Part shown: positions 4,645 through 64,000 of the stretch, piece by piece | Layout of the letters: each line of letters opens with the position of its first letter | Numbering within the stretch: the stretch's first letter is position 1 | Source of the DNA: Eledone cirrhosa | Lineage: Eukaryota | Assembly (NCBI GenBank): GCA_964016885.1 | Contig: OZ024743.1 | Coordinates: 73,532,001 to 73,596,000, forward strand | Reading direction: 5' to 3' | DNA length: 64,000 bases | Made by a program: the position numbers and the translations under genes | The notes under the pieces: generated by a model | Databases searched by the model: none | What the model was told of the DNA's origin: nothing | The model's input: the letters and a program-made list of their open reading frames with translations, nothing else

Positions 4645-6569
4645 TCGGATAATGTCCATGAGAGAGTCCCGCTGATTCAAAACCGCTTTGGGACTCTGGT
4701 CAGTGTGTACGCTCCTACTATGTGTGCTAGTGATGATGAAAAACTAAGTTTCTACATGTCTTTGAGAGAGGTCATCCAACCTTATGCAGACAACATTGTC
4801 ATCCTTGGTGATTTTAATGCACGTGTTGGTAATGACTGGGGAGCTTGGAGTGTAATGGGCAGGCATGGAGTAGGTAAGTGCAATAACAATGGCCTACTTC
4901 TGTTGCAGATGTGCACTGAGATGGATCTTCTTGTTGGGAACACGCTCTTTCAGCAGAAAGACAAATATAAGACAACTTGGATGCATCCAGGTTCCAAGAA
5001 GTGGTACCTTATTGACTTTATTTTAACGAGAAAACGTGATATCAGGGATATCACGTTGGTTCGTTTATTGCGAGGCGCGGAATGTTGGACTGATCATTGT
5101 CTGGTGCGCGCCAAGTTTCAATTTGTTGTGAAGCCCAAAGTAAGGGGGGAAAAGGTTGCACTTCCAAAACAACTAAACATGGCTCGTCTGAAAACAGAGA
5201 AATTGATGATGAGTTCATCCGGTCGATTCCATCCAGACCTACAAAGCTGGCAATGGCTGATCCTCCTTCATTTGATGAGGTGGCGAAGGCCATTGCCAAA
5301 TTAAACAGCGGCAAGTCACCTGGAATGGATGGACTGAGTGCCGAGATTTTCAAGTGTGCTGGTGATAACTTCTTAAACCGCCTCACTGATCTCCTTGTGA
5401 ATATTTGGAAAATGTACCACAGGATTGGAAAGATGCAAGGGATCCAAAGATGACTGTGGCAACTACAGAGGTATTTCACTGTATCTGTGGCTGGGAAGAT
5501 CTTGTGCAGGATATTGTTGGACAGATTGATACAGCACATTGCTGTTGAAGTACTTCCTGAGTCCCAATGTGGCTTTAGGAATGGCAGAGGCACTGTTAAC
5601 ATGATCTTCTCGGCCAAACAACTTCAAGAGAAATGTATTGAGCAGCGCATGGACTTATACCAAGTTTTTGTCGATCTGACCAAGGCATTTGACACCGTTA
5701 ATCGGAAGGCTTTGTGGGTTATTTTGGAGAGATTGGGCTGTCCTGAAAAGTTTGTGAGCATTCTGAAACTCTTCCACGATGAAATGCAGGCATGGGTGAT
5801 GTTGGAGGTAAACTGTCTGAGCCAATCTCGGTTGAAAATGGTGTCAAGCAGGGTGATATACCTGCACCGAATTTGTTTGCCTTGTATTTCGCGATGGTGT
5901 TCTTCATGGCCTTCAAGGATTGCCAACACGGTATCTATCTCAGCATTGAGAGTATCATCCACCAACGGCGTTTGCGATGGACCGGACACCTCTGCAGAAT
6001 GGAGGATGATCGAATCCCAAAACAACTCTTGTATGGCGAGCTTTGTGAGAGTAAGAGACCACCTCACAAGCCAAAGCTCCGATTCAAGGATTGTGTTAAG
6101 GACTCATTGAAAAAAACTGGTTTGATGATGGCTGACTGGGAGATAGAAGCTCTTGAAAGAGAAACTTGGCGTGGAATGGTGAATGATGGGGTTCATAATT
6201 TTGAGGACAGACGCATAGAGCACGAGAAGATCAAACGCGATGTGCGTAAGCAATGCCCTGGTGTATCTCTCGAAACGATCGGTGTCTCCATTGAATTGAA
6301 GTGCCCTGAGTGTGGAAAAATTTGCTTGAGCAAATCTGGTCTCAGGAGCCACAGTCGCAGCCATGTCCAAGGAGAACCAGTGAACTATGATCTCCACGAT
6401 GTTGTGAGGGTTCACGGGCAACTTCATGCAGGACCTCAAATCAGAGAGATCCATAGTTGTCATCAGTGTGTGAAAGAGTGCAAGTCTCTAGCAGGCTTGA
6501 AAAGCTATATCCGAACGTCCCACATCTGAACCTGACAAGCGATTGCAGTACTCTTGGCAGAGTTTGCAA

Positions 6570-8697: not shown

Positions 8698-10500
8698 ATG
8701 GATGCCATTTCCACCTCGCACACTGTCGTGAGTGCCACGCCCACTAAGAAAAGTGGTGGAGGGAAGGTAGGAGTACAAAGCATGCAGCCTTCCCCCCCTC
8801 GCATCATCGAAAAACGTTAAAAATATCGAAACCACGAAACCAAACCCGGTAAATAATACCAGCACCAACAACAAGAACAATGACAATAACACCACAACCA
8901 ACAACTGCAACAATAGCAACACCAAGGAAAACATGAACAATATTACCAACAGTGACAGCAACAAAAAAGACAACACCAAAACAACATTCGCACAGACTGT
9001 AAAAAAAAACGAACTATACACGCCAATAGACATAACAAATGCTAAACAACTATTACAAGACGCAAAACAATTCGTGACTTTTGGCGAAAACGGTGCTTTT
9101 AGCATCAATTCTCCACAGGAATTACGTAGAGAAGCTGTCCTGAAAACTGTGGTTTTCATGACAATATCGAACGAAACAAGAAAACCAGCTCAATTATCAC
9201 AAAATGAAATTGAGCTGGTTCTAAAAGATGCAATGAAGGACTTAACCTCATACAAAAAGGTAAACTGTTTGGTAGCATTTCGGTGCTAATGAACAACCAG
9301 TCAACAGCTCAAAAGTACTCGGTATCACCCATTGTGTCCCCCCGCTTCACCTTTTTCCCCACATACAGGGGGAAAAGGACACAAAGAATAAAAATAATGA
9401 GTATCACACCAAATGTAAATATTTGGTGGATACTATGTGGAATCATTAACTTTGACGAAGACAAGATAATTTCAATAGGAAAGTCCTCCGGAGGTGTATT
9501 TGGTGGGACCACCGTAGAAGTTCTGGTGCAAATGAGCCCAGAACGAATAGCGAATATCCCACAACGCGTGCCTCTGGACAGGCTAAAATATATAAACATT
9601 TCAGTGGAGAGAAGGCGGCCGTCATGTTATCACTGCTTAAGCAGGGGTCACATGAGGGCTGCCTGTCCTCAATTAACGAGTAAAAAAAAAGGCTCTTCTG
9701 CCAACCCCGAACACAACAACACAACCACCACCACCACCACCACAACAACAACAACAACCACAACCACAACAACACGGAAAAATAACAACACAAAACACTG
9801 TTCCACCCAACCCCTCCCCACCTAAAACAAATACAAAAGCAACCACAACAAAACCCCAAAATATACCCCCCCCCAACAACACGGAAGAGGACTCCGTATC
9901 AACGTCACCCAGTGACGACGAGGGAGAACCCTTTCAACAGGTGAAAAGGAAAAAAAAAGGCACCACATTAATAAAAATGCCACAAACACACAACCACCAA
10001 CACAAACAGAACAAACATCACAAGTAAAAAGAACCACCCCTCCCCAAAACATAACACGTACTACAAAACGCAAACACGCACAAGAACAACAAACAAAAAC
10101 AAACACAACACAACAAACACTCTATACATACATTAACAAGAACAATAAAACGTTGATGAAAGCGATAGAAAATAACCCTTCGGTGGAAACCGAAGGGATC
10201 ACTTTCACGTACGCAGCGAACAAACCGCACCTAATGATGATTAGGGTCCCAACGGAAACCTATGTAACTTTGAAAAAGAACCATCCAATGCATGTGGGGA
10301 CCAACTGCACCAAACCACATAACAGCGTCCTATTGAGATGTTTCCCCACCCCCACACCAGATACCCACACCCCACCAAACAGCCTAATCCCACCACACAC
10401 TGATGTCCTCACCCCACCACAAACCACCACCCCACCAAACAACCCTTCCAACACCCCCATGGAAATTGTGCAGCCTGGTCCCCAGGAGACGAAGAGGTAA
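8698..10500 (+). pseudogene. Tx1 ORF1 (gag-like), frameshifted
   Basis: ATG at 8698; ORF pieces 8933-9289, 9283-9825 (CYHCLSRGHMRAAC = CX2CX4HX4C) and 10153-10500. Confidence 0.7.
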
Positions 10501-10542
10501 GTAATTTCCTTTCTTCTTCCTTTTTAACTCTTCAGCACCAAC

Positions 10543-13500
10543 ATGGCCAATATAAGAGTTGGATGTGTGAATGCACGCGGCTTGGGGATGTCCTGGAAAC
10601 AGGGCAAACTCTTAAATGACCTCAGGTGGCACAGAGTGGATGTAATGGTTATTTGCGAGTCCAGGGTCAGCAGCGAGCGCCAACTGGCCCCCATCTTCGA
10701 CGACTTTGAGATCTACGCATCTCTCTGTCAGCCGAGGGGTGGGGTGGGGTTGTCGGTCTGCTGCGAAAATACCTGGGTCTTGCCACACAGAAGGTACACC
10801 TGGACCCGGAGGGTCGACTGGTGGTTTTAGACGTCGGCAGTGGTGAAGGTGGAGCTTTCAGGCTGGTGGCAGCGTATGCCCCATCTGGGACACCGCGACC
10901 GGACTTCTTCCGACGCCTGGAGAATTTCCTGGGAACGTCTCGCTCCTTGCTTTTAGTGGGGGACTGGAATGGTATCCTGGATGCACGTTGGGACTATGTA
11001 GGGGCATGTCCCGATAGAGGTGGGTGTAACAGCCTCAAACAATTAATCGGCCGATTTGATCTGGCCGATAGATATCGACTAGATTTTCCGTCCGGTGGAC
11101 GTGGAGTAATCGCAGCGAAACATCTAGGTCGTACCTAGATAGGTTCCTAGTTAGAAATAAGGATAGGGACATATTAAGCTGTCCACGAATGTTCATGGTT
11201 GACTATTCGGATCACAAGTTGGTGACCGGAGTGGTCAACCTTGATAGAACTCATAGACAGGGACCCGGTTACTGGAAGCTAAACTTGTCTTTACCGACAA
11301 ACAAAGCTTACAGTAAGCGGATTAGCACACTAGTTAAGCAGTGTTTGACGGGAGCAATTGTCAACAACGGGTGGTGGGGCTCTCTCAAGAGAGAAATTAG
11401 AATAGAATCGATAGGTTTTAGTCGGGAATTAGCATCAGATAGGAATAGAACTGAAAGGGAATTAACAAATAGAGTAGAAGAGGCGATTAGGAGTGGCAAC
11501 GTGGCCGGCGTGCTGGCGTCAAGAAAGGCCCTAGACCAGTTCTTTGATGCGAAGCACGAGGGCTGCGTTGTCAGGAGTAAAATACGTGCTCTGGGTAACG
11601 AGGGAGCCAAAGCTGTTAGCTGGGCCCGAGTGACAGAGGCAAAAAGTGGAAATAAGTCCACGATTCGGTCTTTGAAGGACCAGGATGGACGCGTGATCCT
11701 TGAACCTGAGCGGATGAGCGCGGCCTTTCAACGGCGCTTTGCACGACTGTTCGGGAGGGGCGGCGGGCCGGGTGGGGCCATGGATTTCGGTCCATACCTC
11801 GACGGTCTGGCGCGGCTCTCGGACGGGGAGGCGAAGTCCTGCGAGAGGCCGATTTCAGCCGCTGAAATAGGGGAAGCGCTGAGCCAATGCGGCAAACGCA
11901 AATCTCCGGGTCTCGATGGTCTACCATACGAACTTTATGTAGCGATGCCGGGCTTGTTCTCCGGTCTCCTCGAGGCGGTCTACTGCAACTGGCAACAGAA
12001 CGGGAGAATTCCCAGTTCTGTGACCAAGGGCGTAGTCACGCTGGTGAGGCAGGACGAGAACAAGGGGGATGACATAGATAACCTCAGGCCCATAACTCTG
12101 CTAAACACAGAGTTAAAGATTTTGGCCAAGGTGTTAGCGAAGAGGTTGGCGCTTGTCGTCAGGAACCTGGTGGGAGAAGCGCAGACATGCGCAATCCCGT
12201 CCAGGTCCATACACGACAACCTCCACCTCATGCGATACATCGTAGAGAGGGTAGGGAACGAACCCGGCTTTGGTGGGGCCCTGATCAACTTGGATCAATC
12301 TAAGGCGTTCGATAGGGTTGACCATCGGTACCTGGATGCGGTGCTCGCGGCGGCAAGCTTCGGACCCGTTTTCAGGGGCTGGATTGCTGCAATGCACAGC
12401 AGCAACACCTGCTCGAGGGTCAAGGTGAACGGCTACCTCTCGGAGCCGTTCCAAATCACGCGATCCATTCGACAGGGATGCCCTCTCTCCTCCCTCCTGT
12501 ATGTGCTGGCTCTCGAGCCACTACTGCGGAAGCTGGAGCTGTTGCAGGGCATCCCCTTGGAACCGGGATTGCGGAAAGCGGTGTCGGCCTACGCCGATGA
12601 CGTGGCAGTAATGGTGTCGTGCGCCTCGGAAATCGGGCAGATCGGCACCTTACTGGAGGAATATGAAAGGTTCACAGGAGCCAAGCTGAACCGGGACAAG
12701 TCCGTCGGCTTGCAACTCGGGACGTGGAGGGGCAAAACGATGCCCTCCGACGGCATCGTCGGATGCTGGACAGAGGGACCGGTGAAGCTGCTCGGACCTC
12801 CAGGTGGAGAAAAACTGGGACGAGGTAACGGGCAAGGTCTTTGCACTCGCCCAGAAGTGGGCCGAGTGCAAACTATCTCTGAAAGGTCGAGCGGATGTGG
12901 CGAACGCTTATATAGCGTCCGTCATTTACTACCGCTTGACCGTCGTGCCTTGCCCAGAGAAAACACTCGCCAAAATGGAGCGCGCGCTCTTCCGATTTCT
13001 TTGGAAGAAGCGGGCTCCTTTGTTGAGAAGATCCATCTGCTGTCAACACCCTTCGAACGGAGGGCTGGGGATACCATGGCTGACGATGCGTAGACACGCA
13101 TTAAGGCTACGGCACCTCCAGGTATTCCTCACCGGTCAGCCGGTGTGGACCCTGTTTGTGAGGCGAGCCTTTCCGAGACTCGTCTCACTCACCGAGCTGC
13201 AATCCTGGGTCAAGCAAAGACCGAGAAAAGTGGGCGACTGGCACATTGAATGTGCCCAAGCACTCACGGTCCTCTGGCAAGCGGATCCGGCAATCAGTGG
13301 AGACTCAACCTCAACATCTATAGAGGGTTGGTGCGCAGTAAGTGCTACGACGCTCTCGGAGAGGCTGTGGGCATGGAGGAAGACGAGCTGTCCAGTCTGT
13401 TCGGTAGGACGTTTGGCCCGGGACCGATGGACAACTTCCAAAAGTCCCTGGCTTGGCAATTGTATCGAGGAGCTCTACCCGTTCGGGACAAGCTCTACAG

Positions 13501-13954
13501 ACACGGGTGCCCGGGTAGGGACCCCTCGAAGAAGATCTGTCCAAGATGCGTTCGTGACGAGGAAACCGTCGCACACGCATTCGTACACTGCCCGGGCGGT
13601 GCTGACCTGTGGGGCTATGTAGAACGACTACTGTCGCGGGTGGGACCAATCCGGTTGACCACCAAGAACATTGTCACGATCAAACCGCCTCCCCCTTTCA
13701 AAAACGAAGGAGAGGCGGTTTTCCTCTGTGTGATAGCCATGGCGAAAGAAGTTGTATGGTGGACAAGGTTGAAAGGGCTGAGGTCAGACACCTTTCTCTC
13801 CGGCCAACAACTGGTCCTTTTTTTCAAGTACCACTTTAGAAGAAGGATCAGAATGGAGAGAGGGGTGCTCTACCCCAGCAAGTTTTATGAAAGATGGGTG
13901 AAAGTAGCGAGAATGGTCCGAGTGAATGGGCCTTCTCTCTATATCAGCCTGTAG
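10543..13954 (+). pseudogene. Tx1 ORF2 (APE endonuclease, reverse transcriptase, zinc-binding tail), frameshifted
   Basis: NARGL, ICES, YAP, GDWN, SDH; KSPGLDGLPYE, RPITLLN, LDQSKAFDRV, RQGCPLS, YADD; CPRC..ETVAHAFVHC. Confidence 0.93.
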
Positions 13955-14866: not shown

Positions 14867-15275
14867 TTGTGATGTTGCTGTTCCACTCATGTTTTCTATT
14901 TAATTTAAACATAAATGAACTCCAACTCCAACCAAAATTAAATAGAAAACATGAGTGGAACAGCAACATCACAACTTACAATTAAGGACAAAATGAAAAC
15001 ACACACGCACATAGAACAATCAACCAACCAGTAACATGTAAATAAACAAATAAATAAACGAATATAAACACACACAGACACCCGGATGTAACACATGCGC
15101 AAACTAAGCACACAACACACACACAAAAACAAGATGGCGTAGGACAGAACAAAGGAGAGGCACAAAAAATAAGAAAGAATCCCCAGTCACTGAAGAGGTC
15201 ACAGAATGTGTGACGAAAGAACTTTGACAATATATAAACAACCATCTGGTTGTGGAACCAACCAACCAACCAACA
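14867..15275 (+). mobile_element. Family Y element: 40 bp inverted repeat at the 5' end (14867-14906/14935-14974) followed by an HHR-bearing body
   Basis: ttgtgatgttgctgttccactcatg and its reverse complement; related pieces at 27625-27765, 58295-58500 and 60180-60590. Confidence 0.65.
15186..15228 (+). ncRNA. Type I hammerhead ribozyme motif (family Y)
   Basis: GTCA-CTGAAGA-g-GTCAC-agaatgt-GTGAC-GAAA-gaacT-T-TGAC: stems I and II pair, CUU site; degenerate copy at 60427-60469. Confidence 0.75.
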
Positions 15276-15282
15276 TACATAT

Positions 15283-15607
15283 ATGCACGCATCAGTTTAG
15301 CCGACGTTTATTATCACTCAATATGCAAATTAGGCTGCTCAGCCGTTAATTTTCATAAGGAAAGTATATACTTTCGAACGTTCAACTATCTGGCAGATGG
15401 GTAAACGGTGCTGATGATAGCTAACAAGCTTGAAACTAGTACATCGTTCCTGTGTCAGTGTTGAACAAAAAGGTGACGTGGTTGCCTTAACACCGTATGG
15501 CATAAATTCAGGCTGTTCGGTTTGTTGACAAACAAACGAACAAAGCTGCGTTATAATAAACGTCGGCTAAACTGATGCGTGCATATATGTATGTGTACCT
15601 GTGTGCA

Positions 15608-15671
<64 letters not shown>

Positions 15672-15725
15672 TACTACTGTACGTCTGTATACATATATGT
15701 ATGTACGTATACATACATACTTACA
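15283..15725 (+). mobile_element. Family Z HHR element (permuted copy with short 5' inversion)
   Basis: Matches 61770-62100; tgcacgcatcagtttagccgacgtttattat is inverted at about 15552-15582. Confidence 0.8.
15404..15448 (+). ncRNA. Minimal Type I hammerhead ribozyme (PLE/retrozyme type)
   Basis: AACGGTG-CTGATGA-tAGCTaacaAGCTt-GAAA-CTAGT-A-CATCGTT: 7 bp stem I, palindromic ACTAGT stem III, GUA site. Confidence 0.85.
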
Positions 15726-36260: not shown

Positions 36261-36447
36261 GACTCTCCAAGTAATATGGTGGTATTTATACCTTTTCTGG
36301 TGGTAGGAGAGGGTGGTGATTGGGATGGGTGGAGGTCGCGGGTTGATGGATTTAAAGAAAAGGGAATTCTTTAAAAACTATATTTAAGCTAACAATGGCC
36401 ATTCATTGGTGGGTCTACCGAAATGGTCAGGTGTCTACAATCACACA

Positions 36448-36481
<34 letters not shown>

Positions 36482-36568
36482 CACTCACACACACACATAT
36501 ATATATATATGTTTGTGTCTGTGGTTGTATATATATATATATGTATATATACACATATATATATATAT

Positions 36569-36617
<49 letters not shown>

Positions 36618-37243
36618 TAAACGGAATAGAAAATGCTAACAAATTGTTCACAGTGAAAAATAGTTTAATTAGGAATAAGTGAGAATTAGTAATTGTATTG
36701 GTTAGTATTCAGTTTTGGTTTTAAGTTTTACCGGTTGCGCATTTCTAATGCTTTTCAAAAATAATTTCGAGATAGAGCGTCCGTGATGTTTGCTCTGATC
36801 AGAGCAAACATCACGGACGCTCTATCTCAAAATTTAAGCTAACAATGGCCATTCATTGGTGGGTCTGCCGAAATGGTCAGGTGTCTACAATCACACACGC
36901 ACACACATATATATATACACTCACATACTCATATATATATATACACACATACACATATACATACGTACACACACACACATATATATATACACATATCTAC
37001 ACACACATATATATATATATATACATACAAACACATATACACATCCATACATACATACTTACATACATACATACACACATACACATATACATATATATAT
37101 ATACAAATATATACACACATATACACATTGATATTTATATATATATACACACACGTATATATACATACACATATACATACATACATATACTCATATATAC
37201 ATATGTATCCATACACACATATATTCACACACACACATACACA

Positions 37244-37295
<52 letters not shown>

Positions 37296-37470
37296 CAACT
37301 ACATATACACACAAATACATATATTTATCTAAATATATATATACATATATATATATATGTATATGTAGTTGTATATATATATAAATATATGTGTGTGTGT
37401 GTGTATAAATATATATGTACATATGTGTATATGTATGTATGTATGTATGTATATGTGTATGTATATATAC

Positions 37471-37526
<56 letters not shown>

Positions 37527-37730
37527 ATAATAATAAATTTGAAGACTAAAATCCAAAGAGGGCTCGATAAGGATAAATATATATCAAATATATAAGAACC
37601 GTAGAGCAAATATTTATTAAAATAACAGATTAAAGTTTAAGCAAAGAATCGCTGCTTTCACCCTTAACGGGATCTTCTGAAACTAACAAAGTCAATCTGT
37701 AAACGCAGAAGTGGATATTTCAAAAAACGT

Positions 37731-39494
37731 ACTTACCATCAACTACTACATAATGCTGTAACTAAGGATTACTGTAAAACTAATCGGTGCGTCATCAATG
37801 AAATCAACGATGCTGGGTTTAAAATCACATCTGATCTCAACATCCTGGACGGGACCGAACCTCTGGACCCTATTTCTCCCCACTTTACCCTGAAGGATCA
37901 CAAATCCAATTTTCCGAACAACCCATCTATTCGGCTTATTAACCCTACGAAGTCTGATTTAGGTAGACTTAGTAAAACGATTCTTGATAGAATTATACCT
38001 GAAATTAGAAGTTTGGCCACTCTTGCACTGTGGAACATTTCTTTCGCCTTGATTGATTGGTTCAACGGCATATGTAACAAGTAACATTGCCGTTTTATCC
38101 AATTCGACATCAACAATTACTACTCCTCCATCACTTTACCACTTCTCCTTAGAGCTATCAATTTCGCTAAAACACTCACAGTGGTTAAGGATTTCGAAGT
38201 TGATGTCATCCTCAATGCCCGAAAGTCGGTTATTAATTTCGACGACTCTATTTGGATTAAAAAATCCAATAGTACCCCATTCGACGTGAGTATGGGCGAC
38301 AGTGATTCTGCGGAGGTTACTGATCTTATCGGCCTTTTCCTTCTTTTCTCTATCAAGGACGAATTCCCCAACACGGGCGGTGGTTTGTACCGTGACGATG
38401 GTCTTTTGACCATGACTAAGTGCGGACCTCGTGCTTGCGACAGGTTCAGAAAAGAACTCACAGCCTTCTTTAAAGGCTTCAACCTCTCTATACAGGTTGA
38501 GGCCAATCTCTCGGTCGTTAATTAATCGACGTTAATTAATCGACGTTACCCTCAATTTATTGAATGGGTTGTATTACCCGTATAGAAAGCCGAATGATAC
38601 GCTTAATTACATAAGTAAGCATTCCAACCATCCTGCCAGCATAACCAAGAACCTGGTAAGAAACGTTTCGTTGAGGCTTTCCCGTCTTTCCACCAACGAG
38701 CGTATTTTCAACGACCATTCCACTTATTACAATGAAGCTCTTGCTCGAAGTGGATTTGTCGATAAGGTGGCATATACAGAGTACGAAAATAGATCTAGAA
38801 GAAAAAGATCCCGTCGCATTTGTTGGTATAACCCACCATATAATATGGAGGGGGCCACACCATTAGCTAAGATCTTTCTTTCCCTTATTACGAAGCATTT
38901 TCCCCCTACACATAAGTATAGTAAAATTTTTAATAGAAATACTATTAAAATTTCTTACTCTACGACTCCTAACCTTGCACATAACATCATAGCTTGAAAT
39001 TTAGCTAAACTACCTAGCCGTAGGAACACGTGCAACCCTGTAGTTAGTACTAACTGTAATTGTAGGAATCGGGTTGATTGCCCCCTATCCGGGAAATGCC
39101 TCTCAAGTAACATTGTCTACAAATGTAAGGTTGTAACACCCACATCCCGTAGGGCCTACATAGGGTTAACCGCCAATAGATTCAAGCAGCGTCTTTACAT
39201 GCATACCCATTCTTTTCGTTACCCTCTAAGAAGGAATATGACGTCACTTTCAGCTTATATCTGGAGTCTAAAAGACAACCACACCATTATAAGTTACACT
39301 GGAAGATCCTAGCTAGGGCTAGATCGTATAACGGAAATAAAAGACCATGTGACCTCTGCGCCGCTGAGGCCCTGGAAATACTCTACGCCACAGACCACAT
39401 CTTAAACAAAAAATTTGAGGCAATTTCGGCTTGTAAACATAAATTGCACAAAACTTTCCTGTATTACAGCCCCGCGTTATACCCTAACGGATAG
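37731..39494 (+). pseudogene. Penelope-like (Naiad-like) RT plus GIY-YIG endonuclease, 5'-truncated and frameshifted
   Basis: TLKDHK..RLINPTKS; QFDINNYY; MG..DSAEV; YRDDGL; YRKPN..SNHP; WYNPPY; CNC..CPL.GKC; IVYKC..YIGLT..FKQR; CDLC..LNKK..CKH. Confidence 0.9.
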
Positions 39495-40429
39495 TACGAT
39501 TTATAGATGGATATTTTACGTCTTGATATGGGAGCTAAGTATATTTTGTTTATACCATTACTTATTTGCTGAGGTAAGTATATTTTACCCGTATGTTTTG
39601 TGAAGGTACGTATACCTTCTCGTACGTATATTTGATTGTTTATGTTACGGCGTATAATTTTATATATTCTGGTACATATGGTTTGGCTATGTGTATACGG
39701 GAGTTTTTCGTCTGTGTGAGTATGCAGGTTCGTACGTATGTAGGGTGTGTGTATATGTGTACTTCATGTTTTGGTTGACTTACGTCTCCGAACATTCGTG
39801 TATTTACATGTAGGTATGTGTGTGCGCTTGTTATATACGTATTTATATATTTATATACGTTTATATAATTATTTATCTATTTGTATACACGCATACACAC
39901 ACACACATATTTATATGTGTGTGGTTTTGTATACCAATGGTAAGTGTTTTGCGTATGCTTGTGTATGTACGTATTTCTTTGCGTGTATGTATTTATTTAT
40001 TTCTATTACTTCTGTATTGTATATATTTACTTTGTTCTTAACTCTGTAGAGGAGATTCATTCGGTCTCCTAGTTAGAATTTTAGTATACGACTTCTGCTA
40101 TACCATTTACGTGGTTTTGTCTTTGCGTGCTATTGTTCTCCACGCTCCACATATGACGTATTATCTTCGTTTTTTTCGTTCATTGCCAGAGAACGTCTCT
40201 ATGAACCACCTAAGTGAACATTAGTCTACGACCTCTTTTATACCATAAACGTGGTTCTGTCTTTGCGCGTAATTGTTTTTCACCGCTCCTATTAATGACG
40301 TATTATATTCGTTTTTTCCCGTTCTTTGCCAGCGAACGTTTCCACGAACCAAAGTATCGTCTTCCTGTCTTCCTCCGGTTGCAACGTTTTTTGAAATATC
40401 CACTTCTGCGTTTACAGATTGACTTTGTT

Positions 40430-40480
40430 AGTTTCAGAAGATCCCGTTAAGGGTGAAAACAGCGATTCTTTGCTTAAACT
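40430..40480 (+). ncRNA. Type I hammerhead in the Naiad-like pLTR, core CAGAAGA (U4 changed to A); inverted copy at 37634-37684
   Basis: AGTTT-CAGAAGA-tCCC-gttaa-GGGt-GAAA-(G/A)CA-gcgattctt-TGCT-T-AAACT. Confidence 0.7.
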
Positions 40481-40782
40481 TTAATCTGTTATTTTAATAA
40501 ATATTTGCTCTACGGTTCTTATATATTTGATATATATTTATCCTTATCGAGCCCTCTTTGGATTTTAGTCTTCAAATTTATTATTATTACTATATATATA
40601 TATATACACACACGTATATATACATACACATATACATACATACATACATATACACATATATACATATATATTTATACACACACACACATATTTATATATA
40701 TATACAACTACATATACATATATATATATATATGTGTATATATATATTTAGATAAATATATGTATTTGTGTGTATATGTAGT

Positions 40783-40820
<38 letters not shown>

Positions 40821-40826
<6 letters not shown>

Positions 40827-41216
40827 TAAACGGAATAGAAAATGCTGACAAATTGTTCACAGTTGAAAAATGGTTTAATTAGGAATAAAAGAGTATTAGT
40901 GATTGTATGGGTTAGTATTCAGTTGTGGTTTTAAGTTTTTAAGTTTTTACCGGTTGCGCATTTCTAAATGCTTTTCAAAAATAATTTTGAGATAGAGTGT
41001 CCGTGCTGTTTGCTCTGATCAGAGCAGACAGCACGGACACTCTATCTCAAAATTATTTTTGAAAAGCATTTAGAAATGCGCAACCGGTAAAAACTTAAAA
41101 ACTTAAAACCACAACTGAATACTAACCCATACAATCACTAATACTCTTTTATTCCTAATTAAACCATTTTTCAACTGTGAACAATTTGTCAGCATTTTCT
41201 ATTCCGTTTACCAATA
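40821..41216. repeat. Spacerless palindrome (about 198 bp arms) carrying U3-A8 HHR-like motifs
   Basis: Centre tgatca at 41016-41021; ttt-TTGAAAA-GCAT..ATGC-GCAA-CCGGT-A-aaa at 41056-41092; partial copy at 36613-36832. Confidence 0.88.
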
Positions 41217-41249
41217 TATAATAACTTGTGTGTTACACCTCTATTCTTT

Positions 41250-41288
<39 letters not shown>

Positions 41289-41337
41289 AAAGTTATATTT
41301 AAATTGTTGTGTTACAACTAGTAAATATTTATAACTG

Positions 41338-41382
<45 letters not shown>

Positions 41383-41504
41383 TGTGTGTGAATATATGTG
41401 TGTATGGATACATATGTATATATGAGTATATGTATGTATGTATATGTGTATGTGTGTATGTATGTATGTAAGTATGTGTGTATGGATGTGTATATGTGTG
41501 TGTG

Positions 41505-41549
<45 letters not shown>

Positions 41550-42101
41550 AGATATGTGTATATATATATATATATGTGTGTGTGTGTACGTATGTATATG
41601 TGTATGTGTGTATATATATATATGAGTATGTGAGTGTATATATATATGTGTGTGCGTGTGTGATTATAGACACCTGACCATTTCGGCAGACCCACCAATG
41701 AATGGCCATTGTTAGCTTAAATGAACGTTAAATATCAGGAGTCCCCCCCCCCCCCACCACCACCACCACCACATGTGAACCTGTCTACAGACACTTAGCA
41801 TCAATTTTGTTCTGCTTTTGTTACTCTAAATATAGTTTTTAAAGAATTCCCTTTTCTTTAAACCCATCAACCAATGCCCTCCACCCATCCCAATCACCAC
41901 CCTCTCCTACCACCAGAAAAGGTATAAATACCACCATATTACTTGGACAGACGGCTTCCTGATGATTCCTCCCGAATTAAACAGTTTCAGTCCTGTAGAA
42001 GCCATTTCTATATTAAATATATATATAAGTTAAAACAGAAAACAAAAACAATAACGAAGAGTGCAGTACAAAGTGTTAGTATTAGGTTCACGCTTGAGAG
42101 T

Positions 42102-46840: not shown

Positions 46841-47340
46841 TATATATATATATATAGGAGGAGGTTATAGTTCACTTGAAGCATTGTGTAATGAGGTATA
46901 AACGTTTGAATATGTCTAATAAAGCCAAAACAATGCAGGTATGGACATAGAAAAAAGAATGCAATTGCAAAAGATATTGTTGACAAATCGTCTTTTACCT
47001 TAGATTTATTTAAATGTCCTTAATTTTCGAGATAATATCTCTTCTTCAGAGGGAAATAAAGGTCTCAAACCAGCCTTCTAAATATCTTGCCAAGCCATGC
47101 TGACAGGAAATAGTATAGAGTATCTGTTCTATCTCTCATGTCAAAGAGTTAAAATTAGATGGATAAAGAGTAGTCTCCCTTTAAAAGGGTTTGTTTAGGT
47201 TTTTTTTTTGTTTGTTTTTTTTTATATATACATGCCTGTTTAAGTGTGTGGGAGAATGCATGAAGGTGTAAGTATGTGAGTGTGTGTGTGTGAGTGTGAG
47301 AAGATAAGTCTATTCGCACCGACGCTAGAGACCGAGACAC

Positions 47341-47925
47341 ACACATTTCCTGGAAGTACTCAAGCTGAACGGATACACGACATCCACCACAAACCATGCC
47401 AGAAAGAACAGAGGACACCACACCCGAGGCACTAACACTTGCTTCCTGAAGCTCCCACACTTCAGTGAAGAAACAACAACAGCCATCCGCAGAGCCATCA
47501 GACGAAAGGGACTAGATATCCAACTGGCCCACTCAGGTCCTTCTCTACGCGGACAGCTAACCAAAAGACACTCCACCAAACATGACAACTGCTGCAGACT
47601 AGCCAACTGCCCCATCAACGACATAGACCTATGCCACCAGACTTACGTCGTATACAGACTAGAGTGTGCCAAATGCAACAACTTCTACGTAGGTAGCACC
47701 ACCAGACCACTCCACATAAGAATAAAAGAACCCCTCAATACTAACGCTTCCTCATTTAAGAAACACCTAGTTAAATGCAAAAACACCGACAAAACCATAA
47801 CAGTTAGGATAGAAACTAAGGAAAGAAACCTCGGCAATCTTAGAATTAAGGAAGCACTAATTATAGATAAAACACAACCACCAGTCAATAATAGACTAGA
47901 ACTCAACACCCAATTTATAACCTGA
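47341..47925 (+). pseudogene. PLE linker plus GIY-YIG endonuclease (open frame, no start)
   Basis: LKLNGY..LKLPH..CRLANCP..LCHQTYVVYRLECAKCNNFYVGSTTRPLHIRIKE..EALII..PPVN. Confidence 0.88.
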
Positions 47926-48315
47926 TAGGGCTTCTAGCCCCATATTTACACACCCCACACACACACACACACGCTTACACCTCTACTTATTCTCTCTCAC
48001 ACATACACACACAAAACCAGTTCTAACACCAGATAACACCTATCCTCCACATTTACGAATAGACTTATCTTCTCACACTCACACACACTCACATACTTAA
48101 ACCTTCATGCATTCTCCCACACACTTAAACAGGCATGTATATATTAAAAAAAAACAATAAAAAAAACCCTAAACAAACCCCTTTTAAAGGGAGACTACTC
48201 TTTATCCATCTAATTTTAACTCTTTGACATGAGAGATAGAACAGATACTCTATACTATTTCCTGTCAGCATGGCTTGGCAAGATATTTAGAAGGCTGGTT
48301 TGAGTCCTTTATTTC

Positions 48316-48350
48316 CCTCTGAAGAAGAGATATTATCTCGAAAATTAAGG
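48316..48350 (+). ncRNA. Minimal Type I hammerhead in pLTR (inverted copy at 47018-47052)
   Basis: CCT-CTGAAGA-a-GAGAT-att-ATCTC-GAAA-ATT-A-AGG. Confidence 0.8.
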
Positions 48351-48464
48351 ACATTTAAATAAATCTAAGGTAAAAGACGATTTGTCAACAATATCTTTTG
48401 CAATTGCATTCTTTTTTCTATGTCCATACCTGCATTGTTTTGGCTTTATTATACAAATTCAAAC

Positions 48465-48525
<61 letters not shown>

Positions 48526-61268: not shown

Positions 61269-61364
61269 TATATATAATACAATACATACATATATTTATA
61301 CACACATACACACATATATATATACACACATAAATATATATGTATATATATATATATATATATA

Positions 61365-62250
61365 AGTATGTATACGTACATACATATATGTATACAGACG
61401 TACAGTAGTATGTATATATATACATACATGTACACATATATATATGTACGCATGGGTTTACCGAACATTTATTATAATGTTCGGTTTGTTTGTCGATTTG
61501 CATATCGAGTGAGTTAGTCGGTCTGTTTGTTTACGAACAAACCGAACATTATAATAAATGTTCGGTAAACCCATACGTACATATATATATGTGTGCATGT
61601 ATGTATATATATATATATACACATACTACTGTACGGCTGCATACATATATCTATATACGTATACATACTTATATTTAAGTATCAGCCGTACTAAGAGTGA
61701 GAAATGAAATTCCATTTCATTCTTTTCCATTTATTGTTTTCGGTACGCCCGGCCGAATAACTTACTCGATATGCAAATTAGGCTGCTCAGCCGTTAATAT
61801 GCATAAGGAAAGTATATACTTTCAAACGTTCAATCATCTGACAGGAAGGTATACGGTGCTGATGATAGCTAATAAGCTTGAAACTAGTACATCGTTCCTT
61901 TGTCAATGTTGAACAAAAGGGCAACGATGGTTGCTGAACACTGTACGGCTTAATTCGGGCTGTTTGTTTACAAACAAACCGAACATTATAATAAATGTTC
62001 GGTAAACCCATGCGTACATATATATATGTGTGCATGTATGTATATATATACATACTACTGTACGTCTGTATACATATATGTATGTACATATACATACTTA
62101 TATTTAAGTATCAGCCGTACTAAGAGTGAGAAATGAAATTTCATTTCATTCTTTTCCATTTATCGTTTTCGGTACGCCCGGCCGACTAACTCACTCGATA
62201 TGCAAATTAGGCTGCTCAGCCGTTAATATGCATAAGGAAAGTATATACCT
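61365..62250 (+). mobile_element. Retrozyme-like element family Z: 437 nt tandem unit with 5' inverted segments
   Basis: accgaacattataataaatgttcgg at 61541 and 61978; one HHR per unit. Confidence 0.82.
61853..61895 (+). ncRNA. Minimal Type I hammerhead (family Z)
   Basis: ACGGTG-CTGATGA-tAGCTaataAGCTt-GAAA-CTAGT-A-CATCGT. Confidence 0.85.
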
Positions 62251-62359
62251 AAAGAAAATTATAAAAGTGCAATAAAGTATAAAATTGTTAAAAAGTGGAT
62301 TAAAGAGATTTATTGATACTGGATTTTCACACCTTGAATAAAGGGTAAGTTGTATTTTA

Positions 62360-63717
62360 AGCATTCGTTTCTAGGATGAAGCAGTGGAACTTGATCAAGG
62401 AGGAACTGCAGGTGACAAGTCAGAGAAGTCGACACGAACCTTTCTCAGGCTTTTACACTCTTAGGGATGGCCTCTGCTTCTGCCATGAAGTGCCTGGACT
62501 GTTTGACGTTATTGGGTGCCATTTGTGCCCAAGCAGCTCCACCACAAGTTTGAAGGCTGTCCTCCTCCACAATGGACACAAGTTCCCGACACTGCCCCTA
62601 GCTCATTCCATCTGCCTGAAGGAAGATTACTACAGTGTGAAAGTCCTCTTGGAAGCTCTGCAATACAACCAGTACAATTGGGAAATCATTGGAGACTTCA
62701 AGATGGTGGCTTTCCTGCTTGGACTCCAAGGAGGCTTTATCAAATTCCAATGCTTCCTCTGACTTTGGGACAGCAGAGCCACCTCTGACCACTACAAAAG
62801 AAAGAACTGGGAGCAATGAACAGAATTTATAGTTGGGACCCAGAACGTCATGTGGGAGCCATTGGTTAATCCCAGGATTGTGCTCATGCCGCCACTGCAC
62901 ATTAAGTTGGGGTTGATGAAGCAGTTTGTGAAGGCTCTCAACCAAGAATCAGCCGCTTTTAAGTACCTTCTTGAGTTCTTCCCCAAGTTATCTGAGGCCA
63001 AAATCAAAGGTGGAATTTTTGTTGGACCTCAGATAAAGAAGGTGTTTGAGTCTACCGAGTTCTCCAATAAGCTCAATAGGATTGATAGAACAGCATGGAA
63101 CTGTTTCAATGCAGTTGTTAAGGGCTTCCTGGGCAACTACAGAGCTGAAAACTACCAGCAACTGGTGCAGGATCTGATAAAGGCTTTTGGCGCCATGGGA
63201 TGCAGGATGTCGCTTAAACTCCATATGCTGGACGATCACCTGGAAAAATTCAAGGACAATATGGGCGACTACTCAGAAGAACAAGGCGAACGATTCCACT
63301 AAGATGTGAAAGAGATAGTGCGGAGGTACCAGGACCACTACAATGAAAAAATGATGGGGGACTATATGTGGGGGCTAGTGCGGGAATGCGACCTGGACTA
63401 CAACCGCAAATCCAGGAAATCCAGTCATTTCTGACGTGTATAAGTTGCTTTATAAGTGTTATTTGTTTTTACTAGTTTGCTTTTCATAAGCTTGTGTAAT
63501 AAAATAAATATATACTCTGTTGATTTAATTATATGAACTGATAATTTTTTTTTAAATGTGGGTTTTCTTGAAAAATATGAAAATTTCGAAATATAAAACT
63601 TCTTACCACAAATCCAAACTTCTGATTAAAAAAATAATGTTTTTTTTATAATAATGGGATATAACAAACCAGGAAATGACACTTAGAACCGGGGAACAAA
63701 AAATATGTTACACGGTG
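62360..63717 (+). mobile_element. 5'-truncated Chapaev3-like (CMC) DNA transposon with disrupted transposase
   Basis: SLKAVLLHNG, GDFKMV..LGLQGG, PPLHIKLGLMKQFVKAL, SEEQGERFH; right end gttacacggtg then TTA; family assignment from recall. Confidence 0.7.
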
Positions 63718-64000
63718 TTATCGAATACATATGCCCCCAAAGAAGAACTGGTCTACATCGTTGGATGCAAACGATGTCGCAGGTTTTACATCAGAGTGAC
63801 CTTCTCCTAGAGAGATGTCTTAATGAAGACAAGGAGTCTCTCGCTTCACAAAAAAAACAAAAACAAAAAACTTTATAGGATGGCCGTGTATTGTTCAATC
63901 ATATAGTTACCCCAACTTATATTTCATATAGAAATGACTTCTACAGGAGTAGAACTGTTTTATTCGTATGAAATTACCAGGAATGTCACTTTCTGAAGGA

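Follow-up and report, generated by a model that had tools for sequence, protein, structure and literature searches.

Paired 3' ends and PLE-type insertion footprints of a high-copy non-LTR retrozyme in an animal genome

Copies of a hammerhead-bearing, ORF-less repeat in a microsatellite-rich animal genome of 3.0 Gb mostly end at one of two fixed sites within the unit. Where two arms meet head to head, one arm ends at the first site and its partner at the second (48 of the 49 junctions in which both arms can be classified). The repeat, termed A/B after its two related groups, is almost certainly a new high-copy member of the known class of non-LTR retrozymes. The fixed and paired 3' ends, the even 5' ends and the uniformity of young arrays favour, as read from the sequences, rolling-circle copying of a circle that is primed from both ends of a break, and the full mechanism of a circle with two-ended priming by a Penelope-like element (PLE) is considered fairly probable. 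The interest of the system rests on these family-wide integration footprints rather than on the two copies, A and B, in the window, which is the 64,000-nt stretch of DNA that was analysed.

The repeat, its hammerhead and its copies in the window

Copy A (61357-62248) comprises about 1.7 units of an ORF-less repeat of about 430 nt. It carries a single type I hammerhead and an inverted arm set head to head. From left to right it consists of (TA)n, the inverted arm, a 26-nt inverted filler and 1.69 direct units (61518-62248; Table 1). An earlier sequence-only reading had described 61365..62250 as a tandem ORF-less unit, and this was borne out: 61518-61819 and 61955-62248 are 93.4% identical (12 substitutions and one 8-nt gap), and the longest ATG frame in triple units spans 50-112 aa overall and 102-112 aa in families A and B. 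Its unit length of 437 nt holds as the offset between the units, which is due to an 8-nt microsatellite insertion in unit 1, but not as the length of the monomer, which without that insertion is 429 nt as numbered from the predicted cut site. A heterogeneous template was considered for copy A, as its two units differ by 4%, with 10 of the 12 differences borne by unit 1; the divergence itself falls within the age-related decay of family A (median 5.2%). The inverted arm and unit 2 have one rare allele in common. The right end of copy A lies at monomer 359, at neither of the two family priming sites (site I at about 62103 and site II at about 62163 in unit 2), and meets the interior of another repeat via a short shared stretch. 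The left part of that flanking repeat is missing from the window, and the flank has no Pfam match. A later deletion is the likeliest explanation for this right end; alternatively, another A/U loop may have been primed aberrantly.

Copy B (15273-15725) is a 0.9-unit copy of the sister subfamily B and is 81% identical to copy A. The inverted 5' pieces that had been noticed at both loci were recovered. The proposal that the second locus is a circular permutation of the same unit finds no support in the two window loci alone, because copy B belongs to another subfamily and its start is an ordinary 5' truncation. What speaks for a circle in the genomic copies is instead the uniform 5' ends across the cut site and the arrays born homogeneous. 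Copies A and B hold one hammerhead each, one fewer than the two consecutive hammerheads of an 'active' retrozyme locus, and for this reason neither would release a monomer circle.

Table 1. Positions of the retrozyme copies and associated features in the window
Feature	Position	Strand	Description
Inverted arm, copy B	15273..15320	-	48 nt, 95.8% identity; 3' end adjoins the (ACCA)n end of another hammerhead-bearing repeat
Main arm, copy B (subfamily B)	15314..15725	+	About 0.9 unit; hammerhead core 15411, predicted cut after 15441, 3' end at site I
Inverted arm, copy A	61357..61493	-	Monomer 81-214/217; 97.8% identical to unit 2; 3' end at site I, into (TA)n
26-nt inverted filler at head-to-head junction, copy A	61496..61521	-	Monomer 293-318; 26/26 identical
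Main arm unit 1, copy A	61518..61889	+	Monomer 66-429, with the 8-nt microsatellite insertion
Type I hammerhead, copy A	61846..61900	+	Stem I (61853-58/61890-95) with internal loop; CUGAUGA (CTGATGA 61859); stem II (61866-61879) with U.U mismatch at base; GAAA; palindromic ACUAGU (ACTAGT 61883-61888); GTA triplet; cut predicted after 61889
Main arm unit 2, copy A	61890..62248	+	Monomer 1-359; ends atypically at 359
Octamer-like motif ATGCAAAT in hairpin	62200..62207	+	Conserved in families A, B and C
Flank outside the element	62240..63722	+	Inner fragment of another high-copy repeat, transposase-like frames

The single hammerhead that had been placed between the repeats of copy A is found there, and its core has 12,476 exact matches genome-wide against 0 in a reversed control. 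A search of Rfam with a 171-nt stretch alone returned HH9 (E 0.00095, 22.8 bits, under the gathering score of 52), and a search with the whole window returned no hammerhead among the 150 matches listed of 212. When 13 hammerheads representing four sequence groups were aligned, the core and ACTAGT proved invariant (13/13). Both-side changes were found in 10 of 16 helix pairs, with 88.9% of cells paired and 0/500 shuffles, although the kinship of the sequences inflates this shuffle control. The palindromic stem III would favour dimeric cleavage, as had been suggested earlier and as is supported by the dimer logic described for hammerhead cleavage (PMC4209133). On the other hand, the U.U base of stem II and a 1-bp stem III predict weak cleavage; eight of nine Xenopus retrozyme dimers failed to cleave (bioRxiv 10.64898/2026.07.22.740005). 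Other repeat families in the window carry more hammerhead-like motifs (849+, 15190+, 18771+, 21774+, 21487-, 19999- and 7269-), including the opposite-strand pairs 21487/21774 and 18771/19999.

A second A/B-type pattern gave 13,382 exact cores (about 25,800 for both patterns) with a control of 0, and a pattern mostly catching the homologous family C gave 11,092 with a control of 2. Loci were drawn in three samples: 58 position-ordered A/B stretches, two of which overlap, out of the first 100 matches on contig C1; 20 family-C stretches picked partly for visible inverted arms; and 65 loci selected by similarity. Unit length is about 420-540 nt across families; the reported range of retrozyme units is 51-972 bp (bioRxiv 10.64898/2026.07.22.740005). 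Arrays reach 11+4 units in subfamily B and 31 units in family C, a retrozyme of 466-470 nt with compensatory stem II variants (L213-L232 and L249-L268; G000:C1:5738327-5752443 and others). The predicted circular fold of the units has MFE z scores of -8.1, -8.5 and -10.8 against 25 shuffles, with a like architecture in A, B and C. Non-LTR retrozymes are characterized by a type I hammerhead in each unit, tandem units, lack of protein coding and a highly self-paired monomer (a predicted fold here), and these features together with the high copy number sustain the identity that the sequence-only reading had put forward.

The invariant octamer-like TATGCAAATTAG (window 62200-62207 and homologues) forms the left arm of a hairpin, the right arm of which varies. 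Newt satellite 2 has an snRNA-type promoter. A promoter of this type was considered for the unit and is not supported: the U2 upstream regions of four loci are without the octamer, and the two regions tested were not similar to the units above 100 shuffles. U2 snRNA genes also form a tandem cluster in this genome, repeating about every 2.2 kb (L271-L282; G000:C3:307349256-307453739).

Integration footprints and the template

After exclusion of arms scoring <180, arms cut at the locus edge and five alignment artefacts, 107 of 124 arms have their 3' end at site I (monomer ~214) or site II (~274), 60 nt apart, and 99 of these 107 ends run into (TA)n or (CA)n. The identical two sites are in use in family C. 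In the predicted folds of all three families, a small hairpin holds site I in its loop, and site II falls in a single-stranded U-rich linker. One arm is unclassifiable or cut off in 26 of the 75 head-to-head junctions; elsewhere the arms combine sites I and II with a single exception (20/20, 9/9 and 19/20 by sample), an outcome with a probability of ~1e-13 under an independent 50:50 choice (hand arithmetic). The exception, L014, combines site I with site I, and L065 looks the same by eye. In the open literature that our search covered, no earlier report of such pairing in retrozymes was found.

These ends speak for the PLE-type reverse transcription that had been proposed for the two window loci. 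Two internal start sites that define a tail are a PLE signature (PMC11167929), and the one-sided tail of PLEs has been noted qualitatively (PMC8557442, Fig. 2 legend; PMC3846280). An inverted 5' arm, a tail at one end and a microsatellite target, by which a PLE-type insertion is recognized, are all found here. Each end of one break thus appears to have been primed on RNA at its own site. The sequence-only reading had advised plotting the starts and ends of genomic copies and had named fixed ends beforehand as evidence against it; the 3' ends are indeed fixed, at two sites, and are read here as the signature of PLE priming, and the 5' ends are uniform.

Once ten arm pieces had been removed as artefacts or edges, the 5' ends of 121 arms were distributed evenly over the unit (KS p 0.20); 3.2 of them would be expected near the cut site, and 2 were found there. 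Because of this evenness and of no pile-up at the cut site, the linear monomer is not the template. Unit junctions are exact in 112 of 112 cases (15 young arrays). The median divergence of adjacent units within an array is 0.0% in subfamily B, compared with 2.1% between loci, and the respective values are 0.5% and 7.4% in family C and 5.2% and 6.2% in the old family A, the last of which indicate that no later homogenisation has occurred. In addition, sub-lineage variants and unit length are common to all units of both arms, for example in L184 with about 15 units. New variants fixed in every unit need a one-unit bottleneck, and a circle would provide such a bottleneck. A dimeric-circle template, suggested by alternating units in L061, was also considered. 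Period-2 patterns occur in L061, L185 and L189, but the latter two show recent local 2-unit duplications instead, and the rare alleles of the inverted arm are distributed symmetrically between the last and the previous unit (5 vs 4 sites in 11 family-A loci). For both reasons the dimeric circle is not supported.

Copying of a monomeric circle would begin with the transcription of arrays holding at least two hammerheads and their cutting to monomers, likely as ribozyme dimers via ACUAGU; the monomers would then be ligated to circles, as in other animals (PMC7229834). A PLE protein likely cuts a (TA)n repeat, and both of the resulting ends likely prime reverse transcription, at two fixed sites within a likely circular RNA. 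Judging from the observed end positions, priming would take place at site II for one DNA end and at site I, which lies 60 nt upstream, for the other, with a few bases of TA-like microhomology in each case. Each reverse transcriptase would go round the unit for 0.1 to >10 turns and stop anywhere, which is the structure observed in the arms, and the two cDNAs would be joined head to head into the palindromic insertion with a tail on one end that is observed. The expression, cleavage and circularity of the retrozyme RNA are presumed by analogy.

The main rival retains the same two-ended priming by a PLE but takes as the template a long linear RNA that is transcribed from a tandem array already present and stays uncleaved, the hammerhead being incidental to integration. 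We regard it as unlikely, although it shares several predictions with the circle. PLE mRNAs are multi-copy, the main substrate of the anole Poseidon protein is unprocessed RNA, and in vitro the anole PLE used uncleaved RNA, its own hammerhead being dispensable (PMC11167929); long linear transcripts of homogeneous arrays could therefore yield the same arms. Even 5' ends and exact junctions are predicted too, and the 17 of 58 position-ordered loci that hold at least two hammerheads in one arm could serve as sources. The linear transcript stays the main rival because, starting from an already uniform array, it explains the daughters equally well. However, the fixation of new variants in all units of both arms is seen in several sub-lineages and needs the one-unit bottleneck, old arrays are without homogenisation, arm length would only shrink with generations, yet a 31-unit array exists, and compensatory changes keep the hammerhead helices.

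The arms themselves also bear on the highly improbable reading of the repeat as a satellite, in which single inserted units would expand through local unequal crossing-over and inverted arms would arise by fold-back or self-priming. Both processes have been proposed, unequal crossover in bioRxiv 10.64898/2026.07.22.740005 and self-priming on an antisense template in PMC3846280, and the recent 2-unit duplications in L189 and L185 are in line with them. Yet 8 of the 29 I+II pairs consist of arms neither of which forms a contiguous stretch within its partner; because neither contains the other, both arms were copied from a template, and simple fold-back is excluded for these pairs. Fold-back does not predict the rule of one site I and one site II end, both arms of young insertions have variants and unit length in common, and old arrays decay star-like. 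Least probable of all, and largely refuted, is an origin of the copies as 5'-truncated pseudo-LTRs left behind by an autonomous PLE with an upstream ORF: PLEs are marked by a tail, an inverted arm and (TA)n targeting (PMC8557442; PMC3846280) and Xenopus retrozymes are related to pLTRs (bioRxiv 10.64898/2026.07.22.740005), but unit directly follows unit for up to 31 repeats, three direct PLE junctions lie at different points, and queries with two PLE proteins from the window (Hydra-like and one other type) found in 126 loci no common flank or shared ORF after the unit, nor the copies flanking a PLE ORF as pLTRs that the sequence-only reading had set against its own proposal.

A candidate helper of the Hydra clade

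A Hydra-clade PLE is the likeliest helper of the retrozyme, a choice in which our confidence is about even; the evidence from chimeras and folds is suggestive. The retrozyme is joined directly to Hydra-like PLE coding sequence at three loci (L067, L070 and L109), at differing points. The PLE family of L067 and L070 is young, with 98-99% identity among top matches (3,585 candidates) and a 759-aa frame that looks intact. It shares the DKT and CxCX5C motifs described for the Hydra clade and has its own hammerhead-like motif and (TA)n targets. In 10/10 simple palindromic loci, which were picked for their inverted arm, its short end is paired with a tail end that measures about 88 nt. In the chimeras, the Hydra short end accompanies retrozyme site II in L070, the Hydra tail end accompanies site I in L067, and the short end accompanies site II in L086/L295, as predicted beforehand, with about 390 nt of other pieces between. 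The complementary rule is thus obeyed by 3/3 scored chimeras (chance 1 in 8). L109 (G000:C1:18486500-18492500) involves a related PLE family and is too complex to score; its retrozyme/Hydra-like head-to-head junction is present twice, inverted, as though transposition had acted again on a chimeric locus.

A blastn comparison of the units with the Hydra loci gave, among the matches listed, only the chimeric retrozyme arm and no homology to the Hydra-type pLTR. The predicted folds round the tail site look alike in the retrozyme and the Hydra-type family. We tentatively propose that retrozyme circles may be copied by rolling-circle target-primed reverse transcription, with an asymmetric PLE dimer priming either end of a single (TA)n break at a different RNA site, and that the Hydra-clade helper may be recruited by structural mimicry of its tail region, not by shared sequence, a reading that has somewhat less than an even claim to be right. 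If true, it would explain PLE palindromes and one-sided tails generally.

The window has PLE remnants of its own. A broken Hydra-like ORF (37668 to ~39490, with stops and frameshifts) lies inside nested inverted terminal pieces (36393-41722) and belongs to a family unlike the young one. The label 'Naiad' was considered for the window PLE and dropped, as an RT that precedes the EN, the DKT motif and the CxCX5C linker agree with Hydra. A 5'-truncated PLE (46900-48468) in (TA)n retains a GIY-YIG C-terminus (47329-47925; Pfam PF01541, E 0.0002, below the cut-off) and inverted pLTR arms that are 96% complementary. Other features of the window include a long 14/19-nt C/A-rich minisatellite with extreme strand skew (48783 to ~56700) and LINE-like endonuclease and RT frames, judged by eye (4645-6529 and 8771-13954).

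Comparison with known retrozymes and PLEs

The metazoan non-LTR retrozymes of coral, mussel and axolotl (Cervera and de la Pena, 2020, PMC7229834) likewise consist of ORF-less tandem units with one type I hammerhead per unit, and are AT-rich, strongly self-paired and present in tens of thousands of copies. The hammerhead described here joins the weak palindromic helix III of HHR_Amex1 with the U.U base of helix II of HHR_Amex2 (PMC7229834). Its units of 430-540 nt compare with about 170-400 nt in those retrozymes, and the pairing of fixed 3' ends, the targeting of (TA)n and the palindromic arms are, as far as that account goes, not described there. Circular RNA has been shown for the retrozymes of PMC7229834, whereas the present one is known from genomic copies. 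Vertebrate retrozymes (Li, Clavereau, Pollet, bioRxiv 10.64898/2026.07.22.740005) have a similar link to PLEs and a similar mix of monomers, dimers and multimers. That link rests on co-occurrence and pLTR homology, in an account that leaves mobilisation open, whereas here it comes from integration footprints, with no homology to the candidate helper found. Animal retrozyme integration, the mobilising PLE and the origin of PLE tandem and inverted structures are left open in these accounts as far as they go (PMC7229834; PMC8557442; bioRxiv 10.64898/2026.07.22.740005). With copies in the tens of thousands, an active subfamily and a candidate helper that are both young, and a near-strict rule of one site per end, this genome provides a ready substrate, enzyme and prediction for circle-templated retrotransposition in vitro.

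PLEs (Frangieh, 2024, PMC11167929; Craig, 2021, PMC8557442; Arkhipova, 2013, PMC3846280) have in common with the retrozyme two internal RT start sites, a tail that is often one-ended, and inverted arms set head to head. In the same studies both DNA strands are cut and extended, a protein dimer is predicted, and the Hydra clade inserts in (TA)n. Unlike PLEs, the retrozyme is without an ORF, and its tail measures about 60 nt and that of the Hydra-type family of this genome about 88 nt, compared with 30-40 nt in described PLEs. Frangieh (PMC11167929) found the start site alike on both strands and no homology at the priming site, whereas in 48 of 49 pairs the two retrozyme arms described here end at different sites, and the ends show TA-like microhomology.
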